DNA from: an uncultured Chloroflexia bacterium
GTDB taxonomy: Bacteria > Chloroflexota > Limnocylindria > Limnocylindrales > CSP1-4
Direction of reading: 5' to 3'
Assembly (NCBI GenBank): GCA_963763775.1
Contig: CAVXPZ010000003.1
Span: 1 to 64,000 of the forward strand
Length of the DNA: 64,000 nt
Numbering within the stretch: the stretch's first letter is position 1; the number at the start of each line of letters is the position of its first letter. Positions 1 to 6,803 of this stretch are shown here, one piece after another. Below the pieces are notes generated by a model. That model was not told the DNA's origin, searched no databases, and worked only from the letters and a program-made list of their open reading frames with translations. Both the position numbers and the translations under genes were made by a program.

Positions 1-15
1 CTGTCGGGCGCGCCA
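1..15 (+). tRNA. 3' end of a tRNA-Arg-type gene, or an att copy of it; truncated by the window edge
   Basis: CTGTCGGGCGCGCCA is a T-stem 3' strand plus acceptor stem plus CCA. The longer copy at 6706-6729 (GTTCGAATCCTGTCGGGCGCGCCA) matches the typical tRNA-Arg(CCG) 3' end. The anticodon is not visible. Confidence 0.6.
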
Positions 16-137
16 TTTCAACCTTTTCGGGCAGAGCCAGCGCCGATCCGTGCGCGTAGGCCGCATGGGTCAGCCGGACACCCACGATCACCGGGCCGGC
101 GACCGTGATCCGGTCGTAGATGGCGTGCATCAGATCG
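1..137 (-). pseudogene. Probable C-terminal remnant of a site-specific (serine-type) recombinase reading into the tRNA 3' end
   Basis: The minus strand reads DLMHAIYDRITVAGPVIVGVRLTHAAYAHGSALALPEKVEMARPT, where MARPT is the antisense of the tRNA end. The family assignment is from recall, not a search. Confidence 0.5.
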
Positions 138-153
138 CGCATCGTTCCGGCCG

Positions 154-878
154 TCATGCGGCAACCCGCACGTCCGCCACGCGCTCGTCGGCGATGATCC
201 GCCCGTCACGCATCCGGATGATCCGGTCGCAGGCGGCGCCAACCTCCTGGTCGTGCGTGACGATGAGCACGGTCTGCCCGCGCTCACGGTTGAAGCGACG
301 GAGCAGGCCCAGGACTTCCGCGGCCCGGGATGAATCTGCGGGTTGCCCGTCGGCTCATCACCGAGGATACAGCTTCGGGTCGTTCACGAGGGCACGGGCG
401 ATGGCCACGCGCTGCTGCTCGCCCCCGACAACTCCATCGGCCGGTGCCCCGCTCGCTCGGCAAGGCCGACCGATGCCAGCGAGGCGCGCGCAGCCACACG
501 GGCTGCCGAACCGGACGTCCCGGCATACTCGGCGGCGAGGGCCACGTTCTCCTCGGCGGTGAGCGTCGGGACCAGGTTGAAGGACTGGAACACGAAGCCC
601 ATCGATCGAGCCCGGATGGACGTTCGCTCGCCGTCCGAGAGGGTCGTCGCATCGACCCCATCGATGCGCAGGGTCGGGGCCGGGCCGTCGTCGGTATCCG
701 GCGCGTGGAGCAGCCCGAGCAGGTGCATGAGCGTGCTCTTGCCGGAGCCTGACGGCCCACTGATCGCCACCATCTCGCCGGCGGCGATGCTGACGTCGAC
801 ACCCTGCAGGGCATCGATGCTGGTCCGGCGCGACAGCCGGTAGGTCTTGCGCAGGTCGGTCGCTTCGATCAGGTTCAT
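154..878 (-). CDS. ABC transporter ATP-binding protein (LolD/MacB-like), frameshifted near 320-420
   Basis: Walker [23 protein letters not shown] signature, and C-terminal VTHDQEV in another frame. ATG at 878 with an AAGGAG RBS. Confidence 0.85.
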
Positions 879-907
879 CGTTCGCTCCTTCGTCGTTCGG
901 TCGTTGG

Positions 908-2067
908 TCATTCGTAGCGCAGGGCCGACACCGGGTCGAGCCGTGCGGCAGTCCAAGCCGGGATGATCCCGGCCACCATCCCGAGGATCGTGCTGAAGCC
1001 GACCGCGAACGCCGCGGTCTGTGCGGTGAGGTCGAAGAGGACGGTGCCGCTCGATCGGCCGGCCTCGTTGACCAGGACGACGACCGCAGCGCCCAGGCCG
1101 AGCCCGATCAGGCCGCCCAGCAGCCCGATGACCCCGGCCTCGGCGACGAGCTCGCGGACGATGCGTCGCCGGGAGCCGCCGATGGCCCGCCGGATGCCGA
1201 TCTCGCGGGTCCGCTCGGCCACGCTCATGGCCATCGTGTTGATCACCGACAGGCCGCCCACGATGAGGCTGATGGCGGCCACCCCGATGATGATCGCGTT
1301 GAGAGATCGACGGTCGTGGCGCCGACCGTCTTGGAGAACTCGGCGCCGGTCATGGTCGCGCTGTTCTCGACCGCGGCCTCGATCGCCGCGGCCACCGTCG
1401 TCGGGTCGGCACCGACTTCGGGGAAGACGACGATCTGGTTGGCCAGCTCGTCCGCCTGGAGCGACTCGGCGACGAGTGGGGGCAGGTCGCCCAGGTACAG
1501 CGCCTGGGCCGTCGAGAGCGGGATGAAGCCGTTCGTGTCGGGCGAGCTGAGGGTGGGTTGCAGGGTCCCAAGGACCTCGAAGGACTCGCCTCGGATGTCG
1601 ACCGTCCCGCCGGCGACGACGCCGTACTTGCGGGCGATGGTCGACCCCAGGACCACGACGTTGCCGGTGTCCTCGGCGATGAGCTGGCGTCCCGTGGCCA
1701 GCTCGGGTGTGAACGTCTCGAACCCGGCGTCGGCGCCCGGGATGGTCCCGACCAGGAAGTCCGGCGCGCCGAACCCGATAGCGGGATCGGGGTCCCACGG
1801 GATCTCGACCTTGGGCTGGACGGCACCGACGCCGTCGAGGCCGGCGATGATCTCGACGTCGTCGAGGCGCATCGGCGACGAGCCGAAGGCCACGCCGTCG
1901 GTGACGACGATCTTGTCGGCGAAGTATTCGCTGCCCATGCCGACGAGGCCGTTGATCTGGTTGGCCAGCGAACTGAACACCACGAGTGCCCAGATGCCGA
2001 TGGTGATGCCGGTGATGGTCAGGCTCGTGCGCAGCTTGCGCCGCGAGAGCTCTCGGAGGATTCGCAT
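908..2067 (-). CDS. ABC transporter permease (MacB/FtsX family), frameshift near 1305
   Basis: N-terminus RRKLRTSLTITGITIGI; C-terminus SVAERTREIGIRRAIG...AARLDPVSALRYE, split across two frames. Confidence 0.85.
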
Positions 2068-2069
2068 GA

Positions 2070-2726
2070 CTACCCTGCTTTCAGGCTGAAGGGGGGATAG
2101 CGGTCGGTCACGAGCAGGAACGCGTAGGCGTTCACGCGCAGGCTCCACCGCCCGACGCCGACCACGTAGTCGAAGAGCGGCTGGGGATAACGCCCGGTCA
2201 TGAGGATCGCGAACCAGGCGATCACGATGGCGAGGGCCGCTCCGATGATCAGGACGATCAGCGCGACGTAATGGGGGATCGCCAGGAACCATTTGACCAG
2301 TGGAAGCCAGCGGTTCAGGTCGCGATCGACCTCTGGATACTCGATCTCGAGGTGCACCGATTGCTCCTCGACAGTGGACGGATATCGGTCCGTGAGCAGG
2401 GCCACGTAGGCACCGACGCGGGCGCCGAAGCGGGTCAGCTCCCGTGCGAAGTCGAACCACCAGCGCGGGTAGCGCATGCGGATGACGATCATCAGCGCCG
2501 TGGCGAAAGCCAAGCCAGCGAGCAGTCCACCGCCGGCTCCGACGATGTGCTCACCGGCTGCGGTGACCATCATCTGGGTCCCGCTCCCCGTGATCACTTC
2601 GAGCACGATGGCGATCGGTATGACCCAGATCAGGCGAAAGAAGGTCGTGACCCGATCAAGGCGTTCGGGGTAGTCAATGGTCAGACGAGCCGCGTACGGC
2701 CCCACTGGCATCGCTGGCGCCGTCAC
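2070..2726 (-). CDS. DUF4389-type membrane protein
   Basis: Two internal repeats ending LLTDRYPS and LLVTDRYPPF; LNRWLPLVKWFLAIPH. Confidence 0.8.
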   Translation of the reverse strand: MTAPAMPVGPYAARLTIDYPERLDRVTTFFRLIWVIPIAIVLEVITGSGTQMMVTAAGEHIVGAGGGLLAGLAFATALMIVIRMRYPRWWFDFARELTRFGARVGAYVALLTDRYPSTVEEQSVHLEIEYPEVDRDLNRWLPLVKWFLAIPHYVALIVLIIGAALAIVIAWFAILMTGRYPQPLFDYVVGVGRWSLRVNAYAFLLVTDRYPPFSLKAG

Positions 2727-5302: not shown

Positions 5303-5767
5303 ATGGCTGATCTGAGTAACCGCGCGGTAGTGGAGCGCTACCTACGCGCCATACCCGCCGATTACGAGACGCTCGCGCAGTTGCGCCATCCGGACTTCAT
5401 TGAGGAGTGGCCCCAGAGTGGTGAGCGTCTCCGGGGCCACGACGCCCATCGACAGATCCACGAAAACTACCCCGGCGGTACCCCCCGACCGAACCCGATC
5501 GGTATCGTGGGGGCGCCGGACCAGTGGGTCGTGACACCGAGTTTTACGGTCCTCGGCATCGCTGGCAGCGGTGACGAATTCACAACGGTCGGCTTCGGAT
5601 CGTATCCTGACGGAAGCACCGCGTACGTCGTGTCAATCCTTCGCCTGGCCAACGGGAAAGTCGCAAAGGCCACGACGTTCTTCGCCGCACCGTTCGAGCC
5701 ACCCGCCTGGCGGGCGCGCTGGATCGAGCGGATGTCCGATGTCGAGCGACATCGGTTGCAGAAATGA
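5303..5767 (+). CDS. NTF2/SnoaL-like protein
   Basis: HPDFIEEWPQSGERLRG...FAAPFEPPAWRARW; GGAGG RBS. Confidence 0.8.
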   Translation: MADLSNRAVVERYLRAIPADYETLAQLRHPDFIEEWPQSGERLRGHDAHRQIHENYPGGTPRPNPIGIVGAPDQWVVTPSFTVLGIAGSGDEFTTVGFGSYPDGSTAYVVSILRLANGKVAKATTFFAAPFEPPAWRARWIERMSDVERHRLQK

Positions 5768-6219
5768 GCGCGCCACGCGTTCGGGTGATCCATGCGGATG
5801 AAGGCGAGCTCTTCGACTTCCGTGGCGCTCAGATCCGGCGGAAGGTCTCCGCGGCGGAGGCTATGGGTCGCTGGACCCTAACTGTCGGGACGCAACCGCC
5901 GGACTTCGAGAACTCGCCGCACGTTCATCACCACGAGCCGGAGGTGTTCTTCATCCTGGAAGGTGACTATCAGTTCCACACGGCCGAGGGCGACGTTCCT
6001 GTCGGTCCCGGTTCGCTCGTCTACATCCCGCCTGGGGCACTCCACGGCTTTCGCACAGGGCCCGCCGGGGGTCAGCTGATCGCAATTTCGCCGGCGGCAT
6101 TCGACGGATACTTCGAGGACATGCGGCGCCTGCTATCGGCCGGAACGGATACGCCAGAAGCTATGGCATCGGTGGCGCGCGCGCACGACATGGACGCCTA
6201 TCCATCCGGAGGAGGGTAG
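5764..6219 (+). CDS. Cupin domain protein
   Basis: PHVHHHEPEVFFILEG...IPPGALHGF cupin motifs; ATGA overlap with the upstream gene. Confidence 0.85.
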   Translation: MSAPRVRVIHADEGELFDFRGAQIRRKVSAAEAMGRWTLTVGTQPPDFENSPHVHHHEPEVFFILEGDYQFHTAEGDVPVGPGSLVYIPPGALHGFRTGPAGGQLIAISPAAFDGYFEDMRRLLSAGTDTPEAMASVARAHDMDAYPSGGG

Positions 6220-6268
6220 GCACCCAGCACCAGCGTGACTCCTAGGGCCACGGCCTGAGGCGACACTC

Positions 6269-6350
6269 GCGCACCTCGCCGACCACGTCCTCCTCTTCCT
6301 CAACAAGGTGACCGAGTTCTGTCGTGAAGTTCTCGAGCCCTCCGGCGACC
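6269..6350 (+). pseudogene. Degenerate internal fragment of comM/YifB (Mg-chelatase-like ATPase)
   Basis: Reads AHLADHVLLFLNKVTEFCREVLE then (fs) ALRRP, compared with the YifB Walker-B region LAHxGVLFLDELPEFxRxVLEALRQP. Confidence 0.5.
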
Positions 6351-6621
6351 GGTCGACGTCGGCATGCGGTCCGGGAAGACAACAACTGGCAGCCTTCCAT
6401 GCTGGAGGCGTCCGTGCATGCTGCTCGCGCGACCGTCAGCGTCGCCGCTGCCGTCGCGCCCGGCGAGTCCCGGTGACCCCCTCGTGGCAAGCTGACTACG
6501 TTTGCGACAGGTCACCAGACTCGGTGAGATTCGGGGTAGAAATCGGTCGATCTTGTGCTCACGACCAGTTAGCGATCGCGAACATCGGTCGCCCTAACTC
6601 TGGATCAGGCGAACTGGGGCC

Positions 6622-6730
6622 CTATGCGCTGTCCTGATCAGCGACGCGCCACTCTCCGGCTCCCTCGATCGGAACCAACTTGAATCCCGGGGTGGGTACC
6701 CGACCGTTCGAATCCTGTCGGGCGCGCCAT
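6622..6730 (-). repeat. Distal att copy (24-bp tRNA 3' end at 6706-6729) followed by a recombinase-tail-like peptide
   Basis: The minus strand reads [12 protein letters not shown], then after a 1-bp shift [22 protein letters not shown]. Confidence 0.6.
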
Positions 6731-6803
6731 CCCAACACTGGGGCCAGAGCACATCGGTCACTCGACCGATTGAGGCGCGCTTGACGTGCCATACACTCCG
6801 CGC

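Follow-up and report, generated by a model that had tools for sequence, protein, structure and literature searches.

What kind of element leaves a short direct repeat and the broken end of a recombinase gene at both of its borders? This question is raised by positions 1-6755 of a 64,000-nucleotide stretch of DNA from an uncultured Chloroflexia bacterium (contig CAVXPZ010000003.1 of assembly GCA_963763775.1); the whole stretch is called the window below. The initial annotation had read 1-6755 as one tRNA-Arg island whose recombinase gene spans attP, so that integration would exchange the end of the gene. We consider it probable that the region is a decayed array of integrative elements, which belong to a large serine recombinase (LSR) family with an attP inside the recombinase gene itself. 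The remnants in the window belong to an LSR family of the Limnocylindria/Chloroflexota. The copies in the window alone cannot recombine and the feature is a fossil without a function of its own; the interest comes from what was found for the family and not from this decayed copy.

The repeat and the recombinase remnants

The 16-mer CTGTCGGGCGCGCCAT forms a direct repeat at 1-16 and 6715-6730, and these are its sole occurrences in the 64 kb when up to two mismatches are allowed. Two matches compare with 0.17 expected, and two or more were obtained in 0 of 100 shuffles, so that the repeat seen in the initial annotation is above chance. A repeat search extends it around the 16-mer to 22 nucleotides (nt) at 91% identity. 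The repeat and the recombinase pieces beside it are the following.

1..16, + strand: proximal core (a), the last 15 nt of a tRNA-Arg plus 1 nt; the window edge cuts the site
2..157, - strand: remnant (a), the open reading frame (ORF) 'MTAGTM...' of 52 amino acids (aa), open at the window edge, a piece of an LSR
4893..4920, - strand: internal remnant (b), ~9 codons from the very end of a recombinase tail (..ITAAARRPA and stop), right end of the element E1 treated below
6622..6714, - strand: distal remnant (c), a 'class 3' recombinase tail with a 1-nt frameshift near 6680-6690
6715..6730, + strand: distal core (c), tRNA-Arg(CCG) 3' end, 25 nt identical when 6706-6714 is included
6731..6749, no strand: segment between core (c) and the start of homology to the related locus L002, which may be an outer att arm

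Core (a) is composed of the T-stem 3' strand, the acceptor 3' strand and CCA, and its minus strand codes for ..MARPT. At the distal copy the 25 nt of 6706-6730 are 100% identical to the annotated tRNA-Arg 3' end (anticodon ccg) in 5426 of 5426 E. coli genomes, and by ARAGORN and Rfam they are a tRNA fragment and not a whole tRNA. ARAGORN detected no tRNA gene within 1-7000, and the window holds only two tRNA-Pro genes, at 41930 and 61682; an Rfam scan of 1-7000 gave no match at E<=1. The proximal end had been described as reading into the tRNA. The minus-strand ORF is indeed open at the window edge, but a tRNA was not detected in 1-7000, and the body of the tRNA-Arg at (a) would sit to the left of position 1, outside the window.

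In remnant (a), positions 2-136 cover the 45 codons that lead up to the crossover and are 89% identical to residues 217-261 of the fetched protein P0102. The ATG of the MTAGTM ORF overlaps the stop codon of a gene for an ATP-binding cassette (ABC) ATPase (ATGA). At remnant (b) the stretch 4869-4920 is 84.6% identical to the related locus L010 over 52 nt (blastn). A degenerate pre-core and core in this remnant, hinted at by one alignment, were dropped, because blastn supports 4869-4920 alone. Distal remnant (c) is read on the minus strand in one frame at 6739..6680 (17 aa) and in the other frame at 6687..6625 (21 aa). As both stretches match single unbroken recombinase tails, for example P0216 and P0227, the 1-nt frameshift near 6680-6690 is real, and the shift noted in the initial annotation is thereby borne out.

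The two ends had further been proposed to give one continuous C-terminus when joined. This is what intact relatives have, namely the L010 ORF 3579..4121, P0102 and P0517; the end of the L010 ORF, ..AGPIVVSARFTPAAHAHGLALGRPQVVMARPTGVGRALATYSLPIEGRDEWLAAARRLA and stop, matches both window peptides in one frame. The L010 ORF itself was rejected as the parent gene, being a chimera of a DUF3631-like fragment (its first 105 residues) and a recombinase tail. Its last 59 residues are the C-terminal end of many other proteins, which are parts of recombinases.

Apart from the 45 codons, the 9 codons and the frameshifted tail, a filtered tblastn with the fetched proteins found no further match to the recombinase family in the 64 kb; the relaxed version of this search returned mostly low-complexity noise. 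The recombinase Pfam domain is absent from 16 window ORFs in 1-9700 and from 42 further ORFs, and the fragments alone gave no match in Pfam, NCBIfam and PHROGs. The ends (a) and (c) stem from different tail subtypes.

A resemblance of the sequence outside the distal copy to the one at the proximal end had been taken as a sign of a tandem attP-like junction, and this did not hold. With free ends, the likeness of 6731-6760 to 17-46 is not above chance, as 14166 of 20000 random 30-mers equal it, and with core-anchored scoring it is still equalled by 609 of 20000.

An LSR family with two C-terminal forms

In a 1.84-billion-protein library P0102 has 1057 relatives at E<=0.001. Among 10 full-length relatives (about 500-536 aa), Pfam Resolvase (PF00239) is found in 9 (P0253, P0260, P0261, P0270, P0275, P0278, P0285, P0299 and P0304, not the frameshifted P0249) and Recombinase in 4. 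The AlphaFold2 (AF2) model of P0253 (pLDDT 89.9) matches the SPbeta-type, Bxb1 and phiC31 integrases over about 510-530 columns (9dxd_A, SPbeta-type, with the best E of 2.3e-14; 9iu2_A, Bxb1; 9tep_A, phiC31), and the family profile (A2) matches resolvases and the TP901-1, Bxb1 and SPbeta integrases in the PDB. XisF and CcrB models are matched only weakly, below the cutoff. The family thus has LSR architecture, with a catalytic domain followed by a Recombinase domain, a zinc-ribbon domain and a coiled coil. The serine-recombinase identity given in the initial annotation is right, since Pfam Resolvase is found in the relatives and the P0253 model matches integrases.

In a census of 570 fetched proteins, 324 carry the anchor ..AYAHGLALALP..(M/L)ARPT. 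The next residue is G in 303 of them, and beyond it the sequences fall into discrete tail classes. The native class 1 tail, GVGRA..IPIEGRDEWLAAARRLA and stop, was found in 131 of the 324, and class 3 tails (..IPIEGA..W..SA and stop), to which the distal tail of the window belongs, in 44. Another 100 have a tail that is the antisense of tRNA-Arg. The remaining anchored tails are other tRNA-like (2), unclear (44, several of them class 1 variants) or too short (3). When the antisense of the real E. coli tRNA-Arg(ccg) is translated (26 aa), it agrees with the alternative tail, e.g., that of P0439.

Both forms are also present among LSRs of at least 466 aa that have the catalytic domain. Seven of these are unbroken with a native tail (P0253, P0260, P0270, P0278, P0285, P0299 and P0304) and six are unbroken with a tRNA-antisense tail (P0261, P0275, P0363, P0469, P0475 and P0482); one more is frameshifted and one has a tail of another kind. 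The conserved native tail is 27-30 aa long, which places the junction 27-30 codons before the stop codon.

A further junction, ..MARPT followed by VSEFTT or VSESTT, was seen in P0124, P0381, P0489, P0515, P0518, P0532 and others and points to another recombination partner; a start with VS is found in 8 of the 324. The C-terminus of P0310 resembles the antisense of the window's tRNA-Pro(cgg) (41905-42012) with 58% over 36 aa, and by this likeness other family members seem to target tRNA-Pro. No recombinase remnant was found beside the tRNA-Pro(cgg) of the window at 41905-42012.

At the nucleotide level, L010 has a 29-nt imperfect inverted repeat (3632-3660 and 3663-3691, 79%) whose 2-nt spacer coincides exactly with the junction. 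In the parts of the literature at hand serine-integrase att sites are 40-60 bp long, and attP60 and attB53 substrates were used. Judged by its sequence, the L010 dyad would have the form of a serine-integrase attP. From the 29+2+29 arrangement at the junction the crossover was put at the CC (+ strand) before TGTCGGGCGCGCCA, at tRNA positions 61-62; the crossover dinucleotide would thus be CC on the + strand and GG on the coding strand, corresponding to 6714-6715 at window (c). As the two forms diverge after ARPTG and the L010 dyad lies at the junction, the proposal that attP is within the recombinase gene, and that integration swaps the tail for tRNA-antisense codons, holds for the family (131 native against 100 tRNA-Arg tails among the 324).

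These data also bear on the view that the repeats are relics of two unrelated recombinase pseudogene ends, in which case the motif would be no recombination site and the different tails would come from rearrangement or from an ORF-calling artefact. We regard this as quite improbable. The divergence falls on one codon position in 324 proteins, the commonest alternative tail is the antisense of a real tRNA-Arg, unbroken full-length LSRs exist in both forms and the dyad is centred on the junction; all this is hard to reconcile with chance relics, even though all three window copies are broken, the likeness of the flanks is not significant and the database matches are mostly short ORFs on short contigs.

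Another possibility is that the integration is carried out by a tyrosine integrase whose gene lies at another place in the intact elements, and that the serine recombinase gene only overlaps att and has another task, e.g., resolution or inversion. Tyrosine integrases usually share a long block of identity with the 3' end of their tRNA, and such a block is present here (17-25 nt); the gene content of intact elements lies outside the sequences that were read. However, a dyad with a 2-nt centre fits LSR sites, and the family shows every part of an integrase-type architecture, zinc domain and coiled coil included. In addition, a tyrosine recombinase was not found among the window ORFs, and the 5-kb E1 has no room for one. 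We give this explanation very little credence.

The native tail is predicted to be a conserved protein feature and not a disordered appendage. Among the seven divergent native-form LSRs it shows 42% pairwise identity, compared with 13% for the post-junction loop and 28-35% for the coiled coil and the zinc domain. In the AF2 model of P0253 the tail forms a strand (490-493) and a helix (499-509) with pLDDT 87-93. The last 17 residues of the integrated-form P0469 have a pLDDT below 50, which is of limited weight for a difference between the forms because AF2 would give low confidence to any non-homologous 16-aa tail. Explaining the conserved tail as host DNA or as a structured RNA was also considered and rejected, as there is no Rfam match in L010 or in 1-7000 and a helix-turn-helix (HTH) gene follows the tail in 3 of 3 cases.

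In all three nucleotide examples (L010 twice and window 4889-4895) the recombinase stop codon overlaps the start codon of this HTH gene (ATGA), although gene callers often place the start 18 codons further in. Because of this overlap, integration would also part the HTH gene from the recombinase. The HTH protein is LuxR/GerE-like according to weak Pfam matches and to LuxR/GerE-type neighbours in the atlas. A role as directionality factor is not claimed for it, since co-expression with the integrase in the free form is hard to square with integration.

Element E1 and the composite anatomy of 1-6755

Positions 1 to ~4920 are a discrete, recombinase-less element of ~5 kb, E1. Its genes and the features to its right are listed here.

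154..956, - strand: pseudogene of an ABC transporter ATPase, frameshifted at least 3 times between about 335 and 425
908..2460, - strand: MacB/FtsX-type permease gene, with a frameshift near 1300 that divides it between two frames
2070..2726, - strand: DUF4389 membrane protein (domain match), E1 cargo
2723..3751, - strand: Zn-dependent quinone-oxidoreductase-like dehydrogenase, E1 cargo
3718..4551, + strand: TetR-family regulator, E1 cargo
4531..4553, no strand: short palindrome where the TetR gene ends, with a 10-nt arm on each side of GGG; the 'HTH module' has its breakpoint here
4644..4892, - strand: small LuxR/GerE-like HTH gene, after tail remnant (b)
4921..6621, no strand: low-copy segment outside E1, with a SnoaL-like gene (5303-5767, +) and a cupin gene (5764-6219, +)
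6786..9701, + strand: chromosomal flank, LuxR-family AAA_16/TPR regulator of 971 aa, the query for related loci

The extent of E1 can be read from cluster sizes, which were taken from 90% identity clusters of a 15-billion-protein collection. The cluster that holds the E1 oxidoreductase and the DUF4389 protein has 856 members, a figure that spans two neighbouring genes because the shared cluster looks like a clustering artefact; proteins of 342 aa and 211-218 aa are apparently joined in it through overlapping or fused calls. The cluster of the HTH protein has 313 members. Outside E1 the clusters have 5 members for the SnoaL-like protein, 4 for the cupin and 1 each for the LuxR-type flank (the window's own) and for a cyclase gene at 10570.

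The junction of ABC-ATPase and MTAGTM recurs in 41 fetched proteins with 90-98% identity. Their partners are tRNA-Arg in 20 cases, class 1 and class 3 tails in 6 each, other tails in 2 and other tRNAs in 4, and 3 are truncated. Many of the MTAGTM proteins and of the oxidoreductase and HTH cluster members come from contigs of about 4.9-5.8 kb, which is the size of 1-4920 plus short flanks. For many of the 41 junction proteins the contig measures 5.1-5.4 kb. In hundreds of assemblies E1 agrees at 90% identity or more, while the chromosomal neighbours are unique, which suggests active mobilisation in trans within an uncultured and poorly known phylum of soil and freshwater. Most likely E1 keeps both att arms in intact copies elsewhere and was spread by an LSR acting in trans.

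In the window copy of E1 the exporter genes and the right arm are decayed. The ABC exporter is broken at 330-430 and at ~1300, with at least 3 ATPase frameshifts within about 100 nt, while the other E1 genes are intact. The counterpart of 4635..4531 in P0113 (100% over 35 aa) runs into a recombinase C-terminus and not into the TetR gene.

This anatomy is difficult to combine with 17-6714 being one island from a single tRNA-Arg integration, with (a) as attL, (c) as attR and a recombinase body that was deleted later at this locus. Such an island would account for the exact 16-bp direct repeat at both ends, for the halves before and after the crossover being found, correctly oriented, at opposite ends, and for the homology to L002 that starts just outside (c), at about 6746-6750. 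But the tail-end/HTH module at 4644-4920 is an element end inside the supposed island, the clusters have 313-856 members to the left of 4920 and 4-5 to the right, and E1 copies elsewhere have class 1 tails (P0134, 41 members), whereas the tail at site (c) is a frameshifted one of class 3. Many other assemblies moreover share the ABC/recombinase deletion junction. Of the deletion assumed in the initial annotation, the absence of the recombinase body from the 64 kb stands, but the deletion is not local. We consider a single island unlikely, and the reading of 1-6730 as one unit is not upheld.

For the preferred decayed array the following scheme would apply. In an intact element the attP crossover would lie ~28 codons before the LSR stop codon, where the final 17 nt of tRNA-Arg(CCG), read in antisense, supply the codons for ..MARPTG. 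By integrating at tRNA positions 61-62, the element would rebuild the tRNA 3' end from its own DNA. The LSR body would stay next to the tRNA and its structured tail (strand and helix, ..IPIEGRDEWLAAARRLA and stop) would be exchanged for ~16 tRNA-antisense residues, while the tail and the overlapping small HTH gene would be moved to the far end of the element. In the window, (a) would then be the core and 45 pre-crossover LSR codons fused to the ABC exporter, i.e., the left end of E1; (b), the HTH gene with the last 9 tail codons, would be its right end; and (c) would consist of an intact core and a tail of a second subtype that is frameshifted.

Several points weigh against this scheme. Remnant (b) has no recognisable core, and the rest of its tail is gone or unrecognisable. 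The sequence that was read starts at position 1, and searches of protein collections with the 52-aa ORF 2..157 returned no protein of its own. The census is biased, as its proteins were fetched with C-terminal queries. At the nucleotide level no attL, attB or empty site was seen, and the adjacency to the tRNA rests on protein tails from unannotated contigs. The dyad is present in one of three places, being absent from the second L010 copy and from window (c), while window (a) is cut by the edge. A long block of identity (17-25 nt) with a tRNA 3' end is a habit of tyrosine integrases and not of LSRs. On most of the contigs with a match a second recombinase may also be encoded. Finally, native-tail ORFs are present on large chromosomal contigs (e.g., P0024 and P0093), so the 'attP form' also occurs inside chromosomes; tandem junctions may explain these chromosomal ORFs.

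A regulatory effect of the tail swap is speculative. In phiC31, according to the portion of the literature consulted, the outermost end of the C-terminus helps to contact the directionality factor, and therefore an effect of the swap is conceivable. In its widest form the idea would be that the LSR lineage senses its integration state via its own coding sequence. The free form would have the strand-helix module and co-transcription with the HTH gene and the integrated form a disordered tRNA-antisense peptide, with the HTH gene lost from its operon, giving two isoforms of differing directionality or activity and spawning recombinase-less hitch-hikers such as E1. We put this forward as a tentative idea that is rather doubtful as a whole. 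If true, it would be a bacterial serine-recombinase counterpart of the archaeal 'suicidal' integrases. An influence of the tail swap on activity would be a new and very compact coupling of directionality to integration state, of interest to mobile-element biology and for serine integrases as tools.

Related systems and genomic neighbourhood

SSV-type integrases target tRNA genes. Like the present family, the 'suicidal' integrases of this type (SSV1, pTN3, pT26-2) have the site inside their own ORF, and the gene is broken on integration (PMC8371274). As far as the available sections of that article extend, integrases with att in their own gene are tyrosine recombinases of Archaea only. The SSV-type enzymes are archaeal tyrosine recombinases that are cut into two halves, whereas here a bacterial serine recombinase has its last 27-30 residues exchanged. 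As only the tail is exchanged, none of the catalytic and DNA-binding domains is lost from the integrated copy. In the main text of an LSR survey preprint (10.1101/2021.11.05.467528), so far as it was accessible, the term 'tRNA' is absent. A full-text literature search found no bacterial serine recombinase with attP in its own gene or aimed at a tRNA, although earlier descriptions may exist. The family thus has the same att-in-own-gene logic in a bacterial serine recombinase, and a tRNA gene is an unusual target for this class of enzyme.

The phage-type large serine integrases (phiC31, Bxb1, SPbeta SprA, A118/LI) have the same fold, the same domain order and a short dyad with a 2-bp centre, the dyad being found here in L010 only. 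To our knowledge, the characterised large serine integrases insert into protein-coding genes, and their attP is not within the int gene. In contrast, attP is intragenic here, the target is a tRNA 3' end with 17-nt identity, and P0517 has no relative in phage or plasmid collections at E<=1e-5.

The staphylococcal cassette chromosome (SCC) with its Ccr enzymes is a system of serine-recombinase islands at a conserved gene 3' end, with tandem arrays and with recombinase-less cassettes that are served by Ccr in trans. It parallels the array and the LSR-less E1 but differs in its target, rlmH (orfX), in having att outside the recombinase gene and in its unrelated hosts. Integration-dependent immunity of mycobacteriophages, as reportedly described by Broussard et al. 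in 2013, has attP in a coding region, so that free and integrated forms differ in their C-termini and a state switch results. In that system a tyrosine integrase acts and it is the repressor gene that is split, whereas here the recombinase itself is split and the functional effect is putative. The described cis-mobilizable elements (CIMEs) depend on integrative and conjugative elements with tyrosine integrases. E1 is CIME-like in keeping att arms and cargo without a recombinase and is more widespread than its chromosomal neighbours; its dependence would be on an LSR.

With the flanking LuxR-type gene as query, 78 related loci were obtained from Limnocylindria, other Chloroflexota and more distant taxa, the best with 79% identity. 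A tRNA-Arg was found beside the LuxR homologue in 0 of 35 close loci and in 0 of all 78. The closest locus, L002 (79% LuxR identity), is without the segment and has a tRNA-Pro(tgg) there, and it is too distant to serve as the empty site. This tRNA-Pro(tgg) (2059-2135) lies 177 nt upstream of the LuxR-type gene, while the near-identical tRNA of the window is at 61682-61758, 55 kb off. The shift of the tRNA-Pro between L002 and the window points to a rearrangement or to a different insertion history.

L010 holds two recombinase-tail remnants in the same orientation (3582-3755 and 14382-14492), ~10.7 kb apart and each followed by an HTH gene start. Its LuxR-type homologue (10001-12878) lies between the remnants; the LuxR gene of the window is found immediately beyond the distal core. 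Arrays of this kind may carry the LuxR-type gene itself along with them.

Signalling genes are numerous in the remainder of the window, 9700-64000, and no mobile-element genes were seen there. It holds two class III cyclases, a Crp-type regulator, GGDEF and GGDEF-EAL proteins and two ECF sigma factors, and further a second large LuxR-type protein, three DUF1269 genes and a type III glutamine synthetase. Two stretches of it, 13275-13415 (-) and 39918-40082 (+), resemble the N-terminal parts of P0316 and P0106, whose ORFs continue into recombinase C-terminal fragments. Thus, as far as these protein matches indicate, recombinase remnants adjoin homologues of the window genes at 13275-13415 and 39918-40082 in other genomes.

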